Both the position numbers and the translations under genes were made by a program. A stretch of DNA of 64,000 nt from Botryllus schlosseri (taxonomy: Eukaryota): positions 6,016,001 to 6,080,000 of the forward strand of contig CM119372.1 in assembly GCA_051294905.1 (NCBI GenBank), read 5' to 3'. The notes under the pieces are model-generated. The model searched no databases and was not told where the DNA came from. It saw nothing but the letters and a program-made list of their open reading frames with translations. This document shows, in pieces, positions 11,490-26,455 of the stretch. Each line of letters begins with the position of its first letter. Within the stretch, counting starts at the first letter, position 1.

Positions 11490-14247
11490 TCATCGGGGCG
11501 GTCTGTCCACAAAACGATAAACACGCGATGACGGGAAACCCCAATCGCAGTCTACAGGCAATGCGTATTCCTTCTCAATTTCGACATGATCTGACAACAC
11601 CGATAAGCCATGCCGACCGGGATCACCCAGCAATATGGTGGATTCGGGACAAGCAAGTTGCATACTACGTAGTAACAAAAACAGTCTGGAAGCTACATCC
11701 TCATCATAACACATGTCGCCGATCAACACTACGTTGAATAACGCTTGTTGCCCCTCACAAGTATTTTGCATCGCGAGATCTTGCGATTTCATGTCTTTTT
11801 TTAAAGGCTCGTTGAAATCAGTGGGGAGAAGATCCAAGCAGTGGAATCTCACCTGTTCCAGTCCCTTGTTCTCTAAAAGGTGAAAATGTAGCGTTACTCA
11901 AAGATGGGTAAAACGTCAACTGCTAATAGTATCAGGAAAGCGTTAAGAAAACATGTAATTCATACTTTCCAGTCAGATGTAACAAACATGAATGATTTAC
12001 AAGACATCAATAGCTTATGCAAGAGCACGCCTGTCTTAGTCATCACTATGGCATATGCCTGTGCGCAATACAACCCATATAACGCAAAGTTACCGCCATT
12101 TGGCGATGGTCAAAGTAACCAGCACTCTCGCACAAATACGAGTAGAAGTAGCTACTTCCAGAGGAATTCGAAGGTCACAAACTACTATGTAGTTTTGAAA
12201 AGGAAATTTAGGTGAAGGATCGCATACGTTTGGCAGATAATTGGAGAACTTCAATATCCAACTTAAAAGTATATTCATATTGAAATGAAACCAAATATTT
12301 TCTGCTGACACTCGTCAGGGGTAATCGTCAGCAACTAGTAGAGAATTCAAAAGAACATCGTATATCAACAATCGTATCACAAAATATGACGGCACCAGCA
12401 TGAAATTTCGAATATGAGAGCATTAAATGTACCATTTTTAGATGGTACATGAGCTCCTTTTGTTGAATGGTTAAATATAAGTTGAACTAATCTAAAAACA
12501 TGACAAACCGAGTGATAGCAGTGATAGTAGCAAATAAAATAATCGAGCGCTTCAAAAGAGTGGTAGTGCATCGTTACTGACCGACTGTGCTGTTATTCAG
12601 ACGTATATTCATTTTCATGGCTTCATTCGCCACTGGGTCGATGTCATTTGCAACGACGAAAGCGGCCCCGCACATAGCTGCTGCAATTGACAACGCTCCA
12701 GATCCGCTTCCAATATCAAGTACAGTCTGACAAAAAATACGTTGCAACTCTCATGTAAAGGATACGGAACGAGCTATTTATGATGAATTGTCTGTACCAG
12801 TAGGCTATATCATAAATGTAGGCGGATATGTTAGATTACAGAAGATTTTCTCCTGCATCAACGAGGGGCTGAATAATCTTTTCACATATGCTACTATATT
12901 TAAGAATTACCAAATCAGTAAGCTGAAACAACTCATGGTGATGAGTAGCCTATATATTTTAGAAAATGTTTAAGACAAAAATTATGAATTGTGATAATTT
13001 ACAAAGATGTGATTTATGAGATTTATTAATTAGGTATCGTAAAACTAGGGACATGTTTTCACGAGGTTGGTTTACTTGCCCGCGTCTCAGATAGATTGTG
13101 GAAATTGTGGATGTATTATTACATTGATCGTATCATAAAAAGATCAACAAAATTTGAGGGATGCTGGCATGCTGCAACTGAATGGTATTGGAGTTTTGAT
13201 CCAATCCTTCCCCTTGAGGTTCACAATGCTACCACGATCAAGAATTCAAGATGATGCATGGAGTACGGTGTCCTATGATAATTTGAAACTAAGTTAGTAT
13301 TTGTGTGTTGTTTTATTAGTAAAGGGATTTCATGTCCAGTACACTGTCTTATTCATACCGCAAAGTGTTCCCGAAGATCATCAGCGATTAATTCTCTCAA
13401 TGAACATGCCAAAAAGTTACGACCTTTCGCATCATTATCTACTGTGCTCTCCACTGAACTCGATATATGCAAAACGAACATCCAAGCGTTTATTTTTGGT
13501 TTGGGGTTTTGTAGCAGCATTCATAAACCTTATCTCCAATCTTAAACTAAGCAAACCTGAGCCTAACTTGATTATAATCAACAAGAGTAGCCTATTCCAG
13601 CATATATAGATGTCTGGTCTAGACAGGAAATCTGTCAGCTTCATTTATATCACAGGCGACCAATTAAAAAATTTCTTGGAATACACAGTTGATGATCATA
13701 TGAAACTCCATCCATTTTTGTCATGTTCTATATTCACAGAGAACACTGATTGGTGCTGGTCATGAGGAGCACTTCTTGATGTGTATAAGAAAGTAGGCTA
13801 CACCAAACCCAAGATTTCAAGCTAGCTAGACTACTATATTAAAATACATCTATACCTTATTTTTACAAATCCACGGGTTATCCAGCAGGTAGCGACATAA
13901 TGCTTGTCCTCCGGGCCAGAAAAAAGCCCAATACGGATCGCTGACTGGACAATCTTCGGGTGGAGACCTCCATAATTTACACTGCGATGTGATGAGGTGA
14001 AGTTTTATTTCAGGTACCAGAGGAGCGCCTGCATGTGCAATGGAATTAAATTGAGGATCAAATAACACTGGGAATAATCACACTCACTTGTTTGAACGGT
14101 TATATTTCCAATTATATCGCACAGTCTTAAACTATGTTCATTTGTCTGAAGACCCCTGATCTGAGAGGCGGTATTGGTAGCGTTGGTGGAGTAGAGGAAA
14201 TTGCCAAACACATTCCGTGTCCCTCTGAAGTTCAATCTTCTCAACAT
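11490..14247 (-). CDS. ETFBKMT: Electron transfer flavoprotein beta subunit lysine methyltransferase (METTL20 family), 4 exons, ~286 aa
   Basis: Exons 14247-14088, 14028-13856, 12726-12582, 11872-11490 (861 nt, phases consistent). Contains 'PEIKLHLIT', '[22 protein letters not shown]', SAM motif I 'VLDIGSGSG', 'NDIDP', 'GDMCYD' and 'LLGDPGR'. The Arg-rich, acid-free N-terminus ([12 protein letters not shown]..) resembles a mitochondrial presequence. Confidence 0.92.
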
Positions 14248-22780: not shown

Positions 22781-23758
22781 CAGGGGTCGCCAATTCAGAA
22801 CGAGTTGCGGGCCAATTTTCAAATTTCGTAGCGACCGCGGGCCGCATGAATTTAATATCGATATAAACTAGGCAACCACGTTTTAAAACTCTACGTCAGT
22901 ACAACGCCGTACTACCTAAAATAGACAACGGAAATAATGACTACAAAAGAAGTAATATTTTACTAAACGAATACAAATACAACAAAAAATCATTATCATC
23001 AATATCATTTTATTTTGTACTATGAGCTGTGCACAATACCTGGAAACACTCTTCAGCGACTAAAGAATCGATATTGGGGCGAGGGGTATACGTTATAGCT
23101 GAAAGACCATTTCCACGTTAAGCTTGATGTTGCAGGGAAGCCCTAAGCCACTTTTTTGAACACGCCCCCTTGAAAAATTTTGCTCCCCCCTTATCGTCAT
23201 ATCACAAAATGCAACCAGAATGCTATAGCAATCCCAACAGATAGTTTGATGACATGGAAAGTTATGACTGTTGATGAAAGAATTGTATAATATGAATTCC
23301 GGACTATCAACAAAATTTGAATGTGATGTGAATTTCGCGGACCGCGAAAAATCTTTTCAGTTGACTGCAGCTCCGCGCCCCCTTCAGTTGCTTTCATTCC
23401 CCCACAAGAGGGCCGCTCCCCCAGTTTTAGAACCACTGCCCTATGCCGTTTTCTAAGCGTCTCGGTCTTGGCAGTGTTTGAGCCATCGCACGTCAAGGCT
23501 ATATACCAGGCACATTCATATCCGCTGATTATTCTCCCTCGATGGAATGCTGTTGCCATCGCCAAAGCTAAAGCTATAGATACGAATAAGTGATGTTTGG
23601 CACATGAGAATAGCTTATTTTGAAACAACAACAACATATGTTGAAACTGTATTCAATTTCAGCATTTCAAAATGTTTTTCGTAGCTTTTTTCCGAAATCT
23701 CAAATCAAGTCGCGGGCCGCAAAATATGACCTCGCGGGCCACGTGTTGGTGACCCCTG
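22781..23758. mobile_element. Charlie/Buster-like hAT MITE (CAGGGGTC termini), carrying a further internal element fragment at ~23150-23437
   Basis: CAGGGGTCGCCAA...TTGGTGACCCCTG; GCGGGCC subterminal motifs; degenerate TSD CATAAAAC/CATTAAAT. The internal piece matches 43488-43795 in reverse. Confidence 0.7.
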
Positions 23759-24058
23759 CATTAAATCAACGATGAGGACTTGGAGAAGAGAATATAGGCA
23801 ATAAGCTTACGCCTTAATAGTCTAGGCTAGACCGGATTGTGGAAAATGTATTCAGAATGCCGTATATTTGAATTTCGATTAGAAAAAAATATACTGAGTA
23901 TTCGCAGAACCGAACACGGCAGATAGCATGTAAGATCAAAAATCACAAATAAATGTATGATTATTCTGAGCAGCACCCCAATCTACATTACGGATCTGTA
24001 CGATATATGCACCATTCATAAGCAGGTCAAACCAGTCTGACAAAGACATGTTCATTGT

Positions 24059-25779
24059 TCATTCATTATAGTCGTCACGTGCTACGGCCCAGTCGCTGTC
24101 ACGTTTTTCGTCCTTCTCTTCTGCGTATCCCGTATCTCCGTAGCATGATCTAAAATGAAAGGATATGGGATCAAATTGTAGAACTAATACTGCTTTAGAA
24201 TAACGACGAATAAGAAACTACATAGTACAAGTATGTCTAATATACTTACGGAGCTCTCTGTATTATTGGCATTGGTGGCATTGGCGGTACTGGTCCACCA
24301 GGAAATGGCATCGGTGGGGGCATCATTCTGAAACAAATATCAGTCTACTTTGTAATAACTAGTGGCGAGATAGCGCAGTGGTATAATCCGCGGCTGCAAC
24401 ACCAATGGGTGCGGGATCGAGTCCGACCGAGGTCGACTTCCGAACTCCGATACCTAAGTGTTGGAGGTTTACCTAGGCTCCTCCTCGCCACCTCATCTGC
24501 GTCAGCGGTGTCTTACAAAAACCTAGAGGTGGGCCGTGCTATAAGTCGGCAGTTACGGAAAATTAAGAGACATATCGGCCTTGTGTAAATGACCGTAGTT
24601 GTCGACAAACAGCATGGATACCCCAAAACAAACAAACCTTGTAATAGAGAAGAGGCACATAGCAATCTAGTATTTTTAGTGCGGACAAAGAGTACTAGTA
24701 TACTTACGGAAGTCTCTGTGTCATTGGCATTGGCGGCACTGGTGGAACTGGTGGAACTGGCGGCATTGGGGGCATTGGTCCACCAGGCAGTGGCATCGGT
24801 GGAACCAGCATACTGAAATAAGCGTTATCTTGCCTGGTTATAGCGAAGCACAAAGCAATCCAATATTTTTCGATAATAGAAATCATTACATTTAGTTCGG
24901 CAGATCTTACTCGGCCGAAGTGTAGATTTACTTTTACGCTATCAATTTACATATATAAACACTGATGAGCACTGTATGGTATAGCCACGCTTCTGACCAT
25001 TATTGTTAGGTTTGTCTATTATTTCTGTGGGTCAACACAACTTATCTAAGTCAGGGGGGGTAAACCTTTTTGCCGCATTTCGATAATTAATGTCGCCTAT
25101 ACGACCGCATTACAGGGCATATTCCTAATGAACTAACTGGAAGCCAAATAGACATGTTAACTGTCCATGTTGATTTTCGGGAAACTCCGGACTAATCTAA
25201 TTTTTCGTATCAGCTGACTATACGGGCCGAAATCGTGAGCGATCAATGGTCGCGCGAAGCGCAAAATTATTTTCAGATTCATGAATGAATTTCGTCTATT
25301 AGCAATAGTTTCCAATTTATCCGTTTTCAGCCAGTGTGATCAGATTCATTGGTAGAGTAGATGGAGGGATTGTTTGAAAAAAACTCAGCGCAGGTTATAA
25401 ATGTCAATGCATCCTCGAGTGGGCCAATTACTAATAGTCAATTTGATAATGTTCTTTCTGGGCCTCTCATCATGATTGTCGATACAGTGGAAAAATGTTG
25501 GAATCGCCCAAACGGCGGCCCTCGCATACTAATTGAATTACGCGTCGACGGCCGCACATTGCCTGCTTCGGCCGCAGACTGGCCACCCAGATCTAAGTGT
25601 AGCCTATGCAACTATACTCATACTCACGGTGCTGCTATTTTCATCGCCCCTCCTGCTACAGCCATTCCCTTCTTGGCAACGCTTTTCGCACCATTTTTAA
25701 GTTTTTTCTTCCAATTCGAATGCGCTGGACGCGTAATAACAACGATGAGAATGACAAATGTAACTAAACGCAGCTGCAT
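24059..25779 (-). CDS. Secreted prepropeptide: signal peptide + Lys-rich cecropin/styelin-like helix + Pro/Met-rich repeats + Gly + acidic tail (putative antimicrobial peptide precursor, 141 aa)
   Basis: Exons 25779-25628, 24812-24708, 24327-24250, 24149-24059; all introns GT-AG, phase 2. Translation: MQLRLVTFVILIVVITRPAHS-NWKKKLKNGAKSVAKKGMAVAGGAMKIAAP-MLVPPMPLPGGPMPPMPPVPPVPPVPPMPMTQRLP-MMPPPMPFPGGPVPPMPPMPIIQRAP-SCYG-DTGYAEEKDEKRDSDWAVARDDYNE*. The gene structure is seen in sequence; the function is inferred. Confidence 0.8.
24364..24637 (+). mobile_element. tRNA-derived SINE (full-length copy)
   Basis: A-box-like TAGCGCAGTGG, B-box-like GGGATCGAGTCC, and a (CAAA)n tail. Further copies or fragments at ~3993-4155(-), 5340-5460(-), 30820-31020(+), 43090-43360(-), 47570-47700(+), 60100-60300(+). 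Confidence 0.8.
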
Positions 25780-26455
25780 TTCGCAATCTTCTGGTATTAA
25801 CTGTAAATTAAGAATGCATGATAAAGGTTGGTCCGGTGGTATAAACGCGTTTTGCTTATATGGACTGTGTGAACTGTTTCCTCTTTAGCTACCAGATGTT
25901 CCAGTCGTAGAATTGATGCTGTGCATTGTCTTATTTTGCAGAGGTTATGTATTGAACATATTGCAATCAGATAGCCTATACTGTGAACAGACAATTATGC
26001 AATTGTCGCTTTCAGAGAAACGGAAAAAAACCATTCAACCAGTGATACAACCAAAGATATGACACGATCGCCTCTAAATATTTATACGACAATTTGTAAT
26101 GAATGCTGATTCTGGTATATCAGGCGTCCAGTTACTAAGAAAAGGCCTTGTTACGGATCAATGTACTCCGAAAAATCAAAGTTTGCCTAATTGCAGTGAA
26201 CCATTGGCCTCTTCCAGTTAATCGATGTCAATTGGCCGATGGTTTGATAGGCTTATTTCGAAGTGCTGAAGCATTGGTTGTCAACTTTTATTCCGTCGAA
26301 CTGCCCAAACTGTAAGCGTATTTTGAGAAGGTCGCGACGCGAGATTGTGGTATCCTGAGGCGTTTTAGCCCCTCCATAGTTTTGATTCGTTCATTGTGAT
26401 AGTATTTTCGTTCACTAAGTCACAGTGAACCAGAGACAACATAATTGCTAATAGC

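Follow-up and report, generated by a model that had tools for sequence, protein, structure and literature searches.

A spliced, single-copy orphan gene of Botryllus schlosseri encodes a candidate antimicrobial-type precursor with a proline/methionine-rich insert

Innate immunity and allorecognition in chordates are studied in the model Botryllus schlosseri, and botryllin was the sole ribosomal antimicrobial peptide (AMP) found when the literature on this species was searched. The locus described here, located in a 64-kb window (the whole stretch of DNA that was analysed), raises the question of whether a four-exon gene that joins a Lys-rich amphipathic segment to a Pro/Met-rich stretch specifies a further AMP and, if so, of what kind. 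When both strands of the window were filtered for signal-like and cationic ATG-ORFs, that of this gene was the sole one to pass.

The coding gene lies on the minus strand, as do all of its features given below, and runs from an ATG at 25779 to a TGA at 24061-24059; the limits of the initial annotation, 24059..25779, coincide exactly with these two ends. The coding sequence of 426 nt specifies 141 aa, and its three introns are all GT-AG and in phase 2. A TATAA box (25856..25860) precedes the outermost 5′ end of any contig (25829) by approximately 30 bp, and the 5′ UTR, with contig 5′ ends at 25829 and 25799, extends at least over 25780..25829 and includes a three-codon uORF. The coding part of exon 1 (25779-25628, 152 nt) consists of a signal-peptide part (25717..25779, residues 1-21), delimited by translation, a rule-based cut and an AlphaFold2 helix at residues 3-16, and a Lys-rich amphipathic part (25628..25716, residues 22-51, charge +8) that closes with a phase-2 GT donor. 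Intron 1 (24813..25627, 815 nt, GT-AG) carries a repeat at 25471-25624 and is followed by exon 2, the first Pro/Met-rich module (24708..24812, 105 nt, 35 codons, phase 2-2), intron 2 (24328..24707, 380 nt), and exon 3, the second such module (24250..24327, 78 nt, 26 codons, phase 2-2). Beyond intron 3 (24150..24249, 100 nt, GT-AG), the coding part of exon 4 (24059..24149, 91 nt) begins with Cys-Tyr-Gly and continues into an acidic tail that ends at the TGA. The 3′ UTR can be followed to the contig limit (23711..24058), its true end being uncertain, and enters a repeat at 23700-23776; neither AATAAA nor ATTAAA occurs as a poly-A signal in the 3′ region of the gene.

Splicing of this gene is visible in transcript-like contigs from public data of three studies, in which the joints 24149>24250 and 24812>25628 were present in all three contig runs and the joint 24327>24708 in two of the three. 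Every observed joint reads CT..AC on the plus strand, and a single 762-nt contig spans all four exons in joined form. The proposal of the initial annotation depended on exon 1 being spliced to the Pro-rich exons, and the intron-skipping contigs show this splice. The three runs are not recorded as RNA; we infer their RNA nature from the intron-skipping GT-AG joints together with the empty unique intron bins. The 495.5-Mb genome has just one copy of every exon, so a retrocopy cannot explain the joints. Raw reads from one bulk RNA run, covering about 13% of that run, included 0 on any exon, which indicates that expression is not broad. The gene is real, spliced, expressed, and single-copy.

All of the sequence features listed by the initial annotation were found in the translated gene. 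The leader (residues 1-21) has an n-region of MQLR, an 11-residue hydrophobic core and AHS before the predicted cut, which is a canonical signal-peptide shape with Ala at -3 and Ser at -1, the cleavage site being a rule-based prediction only. Behind it, residues 22-51 read NWKKKLKNGAKSVAKKGMAVAGGAMKIAAP, with eight Lys, no Asp or Glu, and Trp as the second residue. AlphaFold2, run on the single sequence, predicted with moderate confidence a Lys-rich helix at residues 19-45 (mean pLDDT 70.4), so that the earlier claim of a membrane-type helix holds for its predicted helicity, the segment being amphipathic. Hydrophobicity (H), hydrophobic moment (uH), and charge (z) of the Lys-rich 30-mer were 0.146, 0.339, and +8, calculated with an implementation that reproduces the published values of a validated Ciona peptide exactly (0.294, 0.319, and +6), and the best 18-mer hydrophobic moment was reached by 215 of 5000 shuffles.

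The central part (residues 52-112) comprises 61 aa with 29 Pro (48%), 11 Met, 5 Val, and 2 Arg and has a charge of +2; its Met motifs are MPPM (twice), MPM, and MM, with no accompanying His or Cys. It is rich in Met and Val rather than Arg, as had been noticed before, and contains 0 Pro-Arg-Pro motifs; this nearly uncharged Pro/Met/Val stretch is probably a polyproline-II-like rod. The tail (residues 113-141, 29 aa) opens with SCYGD, has a net charge of -6 and three Tyr, and contains a dibasic KR at 127-128 as well as the one Cys of the protein (residue 114). Between the helix and the Pro-rich part there are 0 processing sites of the type RxxR or Rx[KR]R, and dibasic sites occur only inside the helix and in the tail.

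The unusual feature of the precursor is the presence of the 61-residue stretch between its cationic and anionic parts. Exon 3 duplicates exon 2 minus a 27-nt block encoding PPV, with the frame kept, and the identity of the two extends across acceptor and donor sites (76% mean column identity over the exon and 60 nt on either side); the stretch is best read as the outcome of a tandem duplication in which a symmetric phase 2-2 exon was copied. Genome-wide (495.5 Mb), a PMPPMPP-coding pattern was found at two sites, and a reversed control gave 0. The second of these sites (C12:1131568) was considered as a paralog and rejected, as it is an unrelated short PMSPMS frame.

Searches for relatives were conducted at several levels. 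In Pfam, the cecropin family (PF00272) was matched neither by exon 1 (E<=1) nor by the 29-aa mature part (E<=10), in a search where HMMER filters discard many matches above E ~0.1, and the exon peptides together with 135 ORFs of at least 70 aa from the window gave only weak sub-threshold matches to TMEM26, a lipid-desaturase, and a DUF. There were 0 matches among PDB sequences at E<=10, 0 of 13 candidates at E<=1 when longer proteins were searched for homologs of exon 1, and no relative among the 589 pattern matches in metagenome contigs. The 1.84 billion protein representatives likewise held no relative; the single match among them, a bacterial tandem-repeat protein of 2,981 aa, was discarded as a summed low-complexity artefact with 0 significant stretches. 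A protein-language-model cluster search with the Pro/Met module gave no usable match, whereas the nearest cluster of the helix was dermaseptin with a score of 0.82, which falls short of the level that counts and is attained by one in three shuffled proteins, and this proximity serves as a lead only. The protein databases are sparse for the Botryllus lineage (a neighbouring exon retrieved one Logan protein), and the proteome of the species has evidently not been deposited, though botryllin is present in them; because of this poverty the lack of a homolog is weak evidence. CesA together with GH6 marks the genome as that of a tunicate, and a COX1 search met with no mitochondrial contig. The best reading is a lineage-restricted gene of Botryllus schlosseri (or a very near relative).

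What kind of protein such a gene encodes may be judged from its layout. We tentatively favor, at a probability somewhat short of even, a secretory host-defence peptide precursor that follows the layout of tunicate linear cationic AMPs with a novel spacer. The order of signal, cationic amphipathic helix, and C-terminal anionic region is that of most Ciona LCAMP precursors (Ohtsuka and Inagaki 2020, PMC7387483), from which the Botryllus precursor differs in its 141 aa, its one Cys, and its 61-residue Pro/Met-rich insert before the anionic part. Under the cationic-helix thresholds given in that report (18-residue window, H 0-0.6, uH 0.1-1.0, charge +3 to +10, no Cys), 9 of 103 18-mer windows passed (starts 25-33), and under its anionic-region thresholds (H -0.7 to 0.4, uH 0-0.5, charge -10 to -3) 13 of 103 windows passed, all in the tail (starts 109-124). 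The mean hydrophobicity of 0.146 is lower than that of six of the seven active Ciona peptides tabulated in PMC7387483. The gene also fails two prefilters of the Ciona screen described there, with 141 aa where 50-100 were required and Cys114 where no Cys was allowed. Both prefilters are screening devices, not biology.

Among the Ciona peptides, KH.S908.1 is a validated AMP that is broad-spectrum, salt-resistant, and LPS-induced in haemocytes (PMC7387483). It is rich in Lys, Ala, Gly, and Val, as is the Botryllus helix, and the two share 10 identities over 17 positions in one ungapped register. The Smith-Waterman score of 40 between them was reached by 98 to 262 of 20000 shuffles, controls that erase the amphipathic periodicity common to any two such helices, and default BLASTP returned no alignment. 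The apparent likeness to KH.S908.1, which was picked by eye from about 25 peptides, is not significant after correction.

In the favored reading of a host-defence precursor with a spacer, the protein would enter the secretory pathway and be stored or released, the acidic tail might temper the cationic part ahead of release, and the cationic helix would attach to the anionic membranes of microbes and make them permeable by a carpet mechanism, as cecropins and dermaseptins do. The Pro/Met-rich rod could act as a spacer or propiece, or could remain attached and modify activity. Secretion, processing, antimicrobial action, and cell type are features that we infer.

Cecropins are characterized by an N-terminal Trp, a basic amphipathic N-terminal helix, and a more hydrophobic C-terminal part. 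The orphan peptide resembles cecropins and dermaseptins in having Trp near its N-terminus, a Lys-rich amphipathic N-terminal half, and Gly-Gly ahead of an Ala/Val/Ile-rich end, but it differs from them in giving no Pfam match at E<=10, in lacking an amidation signal, and in its other precursor architecture. This likeness is physico-chemical, with ancestry not demonstrated, and the suggested membership in a cecropin or styelin family found no support, either in Pfam or in a hidden Markov model (HMM) of the botryllin/styelin-like family, whose score lies at the level of shuffled sequences. The product, a candidate AMP precursor of the tunicate layout, could be assigned to none of the cecropin, botryllin/styelin, and Ciona AMP families. 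In cecropins, the signal for C-terminal amidation is a Gly, often with basic residues, after the mature peptide; the amidated product that had been envisaged finds no such Gly plus basic site here, as the helix is followed at once by the Pro-rich exon. Dimers of the halocidin/dicynthaurin type are formed through a single Cys within the cationic mature peptide. The idea that the orphan product might dimerize in this manner is unlikely, because its only Cys (residue 114) belongs to the acidic tail, outside the cationic peptide.

Other readings of the same precursor differ mainly in what they make of the Pro/Met-rich part. The initial annotation took it for one half of a two-domain mature AMP, a view weakened by the finding that no processing site divides the helix from the Pro-rich part; the latter might for this reason just as well be a spacer or propiece. 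It is improbable that the mature product is a covalent two-domain AMP whose helix breaks through the membrane and carries the Pro-rich rod to a second target, possibly as a disulfide dimer. The missing cleavage motif between the two parts would suit it, and the Pro-rich part satisfies both sequence criteria for proline-rich AMPs (PrAMPs) quoted in a review (PMC11678341), namely at least 25% Pro (48% here) and a charge of at least +1 (+2 here), the PRP motif being non-essential according to the same source, which also describes pore-forming helical AMPs and PrAMPs as synergistic when they are separate molecules. PrAMPs have an intracellular target, the 70S ribosome or DnaK. Penaeidins and stylicins likewise unite a Pro-rich extended domain with a second domain in one secreted immune peptide, although they pair it with a Cys-rich or WAP domain and the orphan gene has an N-terminal cationic helix instead (PMC11678341). 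However, PrAMP mechanisms described there depend on cationic residues, whereas the orphan Pro part is Met/Val-rich with only 2 Arg in 61 residues and is devoid of PRP, unlike typical proline-rich AMPs; the available portion of the review contains 0 occurrences of tunicate, ascidian, or methionine and presents no tunicate or Met-rich PrAMP. The position of the Cys in the acidic tail and the absence of an amidation signal argue against this possibility as well. We consider it decidedly doubtful that the protein is a one-piece secreted fusion of a cecropin/dermaseptin-like helix with a non-cationic Pro/Met polyproline rod, formed de novo in Botryllus via exon duplication, which would represent an AMP architecture with no described counterpart and in which the helix would deliver or anchor a hydrophobic polyproline-II domain with a target, or a Cu(I)/redox chemistry, of its own. 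Such chemistry could even be the main function, if the product were a secreted Met-rich metal-binding protein or redox buffer whose MxxM/MxM motifs bind Cu(I), or whose Met residues scavenge phenoloxidase-associated oxidants, while the charged ends target it. Copper transporters bind Cu(I) through Met motifs, and 11 of the 61 central residues are Met, in the motifs listed above. Composition is the only basis of this possibility, which we regard as very unlikely given that the Met motifs are unaccompanied by His or Cys and that the protein is not similar to any metal-binding family.

A direct antimicrobial role would be missing altogether if the gene encoded a secreted disordered structural, adhesive, or matrix protein of the tunic, extracellular nets, or an adhesive secretion, in which the Lys-rich and acidic ends mediate electrostatic assembly, the Pro/Met rod is a stiff spacer, and Cys and Tyr are used for cross-linking. 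This seems rather unlikely, though much of the sequence could accommodate it: low-complexity Pro/Met/Val makes up about half of the mature protein, no internal processing site is present, the tail offers one Cys and three Tyr, the opposite end charges (+8 and -6) suit self-assembly, helix hydrophobicity is low, and the lack of expression in one bulk RNA run agrees with production by a specialised secretory cell. The usual structural secretion is longer and more repetitive and is encoded by several genes, whereas this protein is small (120 aa when mature) and single-copy, its Lys-rich part shows helical periodicity and not simple repeats, and its layout fits tunicate AMP precursors. Descent from the botryllin/styelin-like family, of which the Botryllus genome has 14 members (exon-1 paralogs), would involve a diverged paralog that kept the exon-1 layout and exchanged its downstream exons. 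Botryllin, a validated AMP that this species stores in granules (Franchi et al. 2023, PMC9966394), resembles the orphan product in that basic residues come immediately after the signal peptide and an acidic propiece lies downstream. The common exon-1 plan comprises a signal, Trp at or next to the cut, a basic run, a Lys/Val/Gly stretch, and a phase-2 donor, with exon 1 closing in a phase-2 intron 28 residues past the signal in botryllin and 30 in the orphan gene; in the family, 9 of the 15 listed loci have a phase-2 donor matching GT[AG]AG, and in most of the remaining loci the motif is immediately followed by GTAT. The exon-1 peptides are also collinear as W-x6-G-x5-KK-x5-GG, and KKVAKSVKKV in one family member can be set beside NGAKSVAKKG in the orphan. 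Despite these resemblances, a paralog is highly unlikely. Exon 1 scored 2.8 bits against the HMM of the 14 exon-1 paralogs, a value reached by 334 of 3000 shuffles when both regions were shuffled, by 985 of 3000 when the signal was kept, and by 1656 of 3000 for the mature part alone; the pairwise score was reached by 109 to 519 of 5000 shuffles, and genome searches with either exon 1 missed the other at E<=10. The family has W-G-polyArg after the signal peptide and, where exon 1 ends, a terminal Y-K-K-H/Y-K, which is the KHK motif named in PMC9966394; both are absent from the orphan gene, which has N-W-KKK, ends in AMKIAAP, and contains neither KHK nor KYK. Botryllin is without Pro/Met-rich exons, and its propiece has 88 residues with a net charge of -21 as compared with 29 residues and -6 in the orphan tail, the tails being unrelated (score reached by 1913 of 5000 shuffles). 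Finally, it is hardly credible that the transcript is non-coding or its ORF fortuitous. No homolog was found in the protein databases searched, and half of the ORF is low-complexity, as this explanation would predict, but a single frame extends across four exons and three phase-2 introns, the duplicated exon preserves the frame with a difference of exactly 27 nt, the leader has the canonical signal-peptide shape, and the longest ORF of the 824-nt spliced transcript encodes 141 aa with a runner-up of 39 aa.

The orphan gene is an RNA-supported second AMP candidate of Botryllus schlosseri, of a sequence type unlike botryllin, and would escape homology searches as well as the published Ciona screen, whose prefilters act on length and Cys. 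If it is active, the tunicate AMP precursor layout can absorb a long Pro/Met-rich module via exon duplication, and the gene would offer a natural case in which the activity of the helix can be compared with that of helix plus polyproline at the salinity of sea water. If the product is not an AMP, the locus is still a clean example of a young orphan gene for a secreted protein whose exon duplication can be traced.

Several minor features of the locus can be added. Six NF-kappaB motifs occur in the window where 2.9 are expected, a number that 16 of 100 shuffles reach; none is upstream of the gene, and one lies inside intron 1, which leaves the count uninformative. Neither ARAGORN nor Rfam finds anything in the 64-kb window, including the tRNA-like SINE inside intron 2 (about 24361-24570), over which sequence depth rises to about 50,000, with loose ends at 24361/24362 and 24563/24570. 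In exon 4, a C>A variant at 24090, which changes W132 to L, is present in all three contig runs.

The joined reading frame of the gene runs along the minus strand in four exons (25779-25628, 24812-24708, 24327-24250 and 24149-24059) and comprises 426 nt encoding 141 aa. All three introns start with GT, end with AG after a pyrimidine tract and split a codon after its second base. A hydrophobic leader of 21 residues is followed by NWKKKLKNGAKSVAKKGMAVAGGAMKIAAP, a segment with eight Lys and no acidic residue, then by a central Pro/Met-rich part and a C-terminal tail, which begins with SCYGD, has a net charge of -6 and carries KR at residues 127-128. The pieces listed in the initial annotation (leader, Lys-rich segment, Pro/Met-rich stretch and SCYGD tail with KR) were thus recovered on translation.

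The region 23700-26000 was compared with the contigs of three runs, each from a different study, and with the raw reads of one RNA run. The joints 24149>24250 and 24812>25628 were present in all three contig runs and 24327>24708 in two of them, each with CT..AC ends on the plus strand, that is, GT..AG on the minus strand. One contig (record 1 of run X6, 762 nt, depth 28.5) contains 25767-25628, 24812-24708, 24327-24250 and 24149-23711, and hence all four exons, which bears out the earlier proposal that exon 1 is spliced to the Pro-rich exons. Although none of the three contig runs is recorded as RNA, we infer that their contigs are transcripts because the joints skip introns and the unique intron bins are empty. 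A processed DNA copy is an unlikely source of the joints, since each exon occurs only once in the 495.5-Mb genome assembly. No exon read was detected in the approximately 13% of the raw-read RNA run (X17) that was read, and expression is therefore restricted rather than ubiquitous. Further contigs reach upstream to 25829, and a TATAA precedes the furthest 5′ contig end by approximately 30 bp. All three contig runs differ from the assembly at 24090 (C>A, plus strand), which replaces Trp132 of the acidic tail by Leu.

Several repeats accompany the gene. Intron 2 contains a SINE-like repeat of approximately 200 bp with a tRNA-like head (24361-24570), called by neither ARAGORN nor Rfam, whose summed contig depth reaches approximately 50,000, whose borders are visible as loose contig ends and which has reads on both strands in the raw RNA run. 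Two more repeated elements also stand out, with depths far above their flanks in all four runs: one in intron 1 (25471-25624), the other at the end of the 3′-UTR (23700-23776).

In a rule-based reading, the leader resembles a cleavable signal peptide in shape, with MQLR, a hydrophobic core of 11 residues and Ala-His-Ser ahead of the predicted cut. AlphaFold2 predicted helices at residues 3-16 and 19-45 of exon 1 alone (mean pLDDT 70.4). HeliQuest-type measures were calculated as in the available text of Ohtsuka and Inagaki (PMC7387483), the published values of one peptide being reproduced exactly, and gave H 0.146, uH 0.339 and z +8 for the Lys-rich 30-mer. By the thresholds in that text, 9 of 103 18-mer windows qualified as cationic helix and 13, all of them in the tail, as anionic region, and the protein falls outside two prefilters of the same screen (length of 50-100 residues and absence of Cys). 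The best 18-mer moment (Eisenberg scale) was equalled or beaten in 215 of 5000 shuffles.

Exons 2 and 3 are duplicates whose identity extends across both splice sites and which differ by one 27-nt block; because both are phase 2-2, the frame would survive the gain or the skipping of either one. Only two sites in the genome carry the PMPPMPP-coding pattern, and the second is unrelated. The central part (61 residues, including 29 Pro, 11 Met, 5 Val and 2 Arg) agrees in its 48% Pro and charge of +2 with the criteria for proline-rich AMPs quoted in the available text of PMC11678341, and contains no Pro-Arg-Pro motif, consistent with the earlier remark that it is unlike Arg-rich members of that class. 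That text mentions no tunicate and no Met-rich example. No usable match to it was found in the protein atlas.

No true relative was detected by word-indexed protein search, among PDB sequences or in metagenome contigs, and no Pfam family matched. An exhaustive search with phmmer across 1.84 billion representatives returned one match, which was rejected as a repeat artefact. Together these searches suggest only weakly that the gene, which is undeposited in the protein collection, is an orphan, since coverage of the lineage is thin and the protein itself is absent from the collection, in which the positive control botryllin is present. In the searchable literature (bioRxiv supplements and subscription journals being outside its scope), botryllin is the sole B. 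schlosseri AMP and no Pro/Met-rich secreted tunicate protein was found. According to the available text of PMC7387483, experiments showed that the Ciona peptide KH.S908.1 has a broad spectrum, stays active in up to 500 mM NaCl and is induced by LPS in haemocytes. It shares 10 of 17 positions with the helix; the alignment score of 40 was matched in 98 to 262 of 20000 shuffles, but because the peptide was picked from approximately 25 listed and shuffling abolishes amphipathic periodicity, the likeness is a lead and not evidence of homology.

A published botryllin primer matches the assembly exactly once (approximately 0.004 expected by chance), in an exon with 98% identity to 'botryllin [Botryllus schlosseri]'. 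The DNA therefore comes from B. schlosseri or a species very close to it, and the ascidian source assumed in the initial annotation was correct. Botryllin is a member of a multigene family: genome search (loci L013-L028) revealed at least 14 paralogous first exons, on contigs C11 (9117408 and 9172170), C12 (11110484), C5 (19237969, 19257951, 19300911 and 19316443), C2 (17353882, 17374495, 17387027 and 2487164), C15 (6780930, 3153860 and 3157692) and C181 (14546). Their common features are a signal peptide, W-G-polyArg, a stretch rich in Lys, Val and Gly that ends in Y-K-K-H/Y-K, and a phase-2 donor. The two C11 copies are near-identical and 55 kb apart. According to the available Discussion of PMC9966394, botryllin paralogs and isoforms were not separable because the genome was fragmented.

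The best-supported explanation, which we favour tentatively, is that the product is a tunicate-type precursor of a host-defence peptide, in which the Pro/Met-rich part is a new spacer. It might also be a disordered secreted protein, structural or adhesive, a reading that is rather unlikely. The covalent two-domain AMP of the initial annotation, a helix plus a polyproline rod, is clearly unlikely. The amidation and halocidin-like dimer proposed with it are unsupported because the sequence prerequisites are missing from the protein, whose single Cys is residue 114, in the tail. Descent as a diverged botryllin paralog is quite improbable. In plan and phase, exon 1 agrees with botryllin exon 1, with which it is collinear as W-x6-G-x5-KK-x5-GG; family membership is nevertheless not supported because the pairwise score is matched in 109 to 519 of 5000 shuffles, the family HMM score (2.8 bits) is matched in 334 to 985 of 3000 layout-preserving shuffles, and genome searches with either exon 1 do not retrieve the other. 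A Met-based metal or redox protein, as the Met-rich module might suggest, is very improbable, and a fortuitous ORF is hardly credible, the 141-aa frame being the longest in the 824-nt spliced transcript (runner-up, 39 aa).

Within the window, the gene has no paralog and holds the only first exon of the signal-plus-cationic type, and none of the 135 window ORFs provides an informative Pfam neighbour. An open exon at 11493-11897 (minus, 135 aa) has no Pfam family and 83% identity to a 121-aa Logan-assembly protein (P0001), and probably belongs, as a conserved exon, to a neighbouring gene that lacks annotation. The segment 4466-4837 (minus) shows a weak resemblance, below the cut-off of 22.2 bits, to the C-terminal end of Pfam Tmem26 (16 bits, E 0.0086). 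Elsewhere in the assembly, a GH6 match lies 3.3 kb downstream of a cellulose-synthase match, both on one strand (contig C9:15025585-15029521); this is the tunicate CesA-GH6 arrangement, which among animals is, to our knowledge, known from tunicates only. A second GH6 match 43 kb away (C9:15068570) is possibly a tandem second copy.
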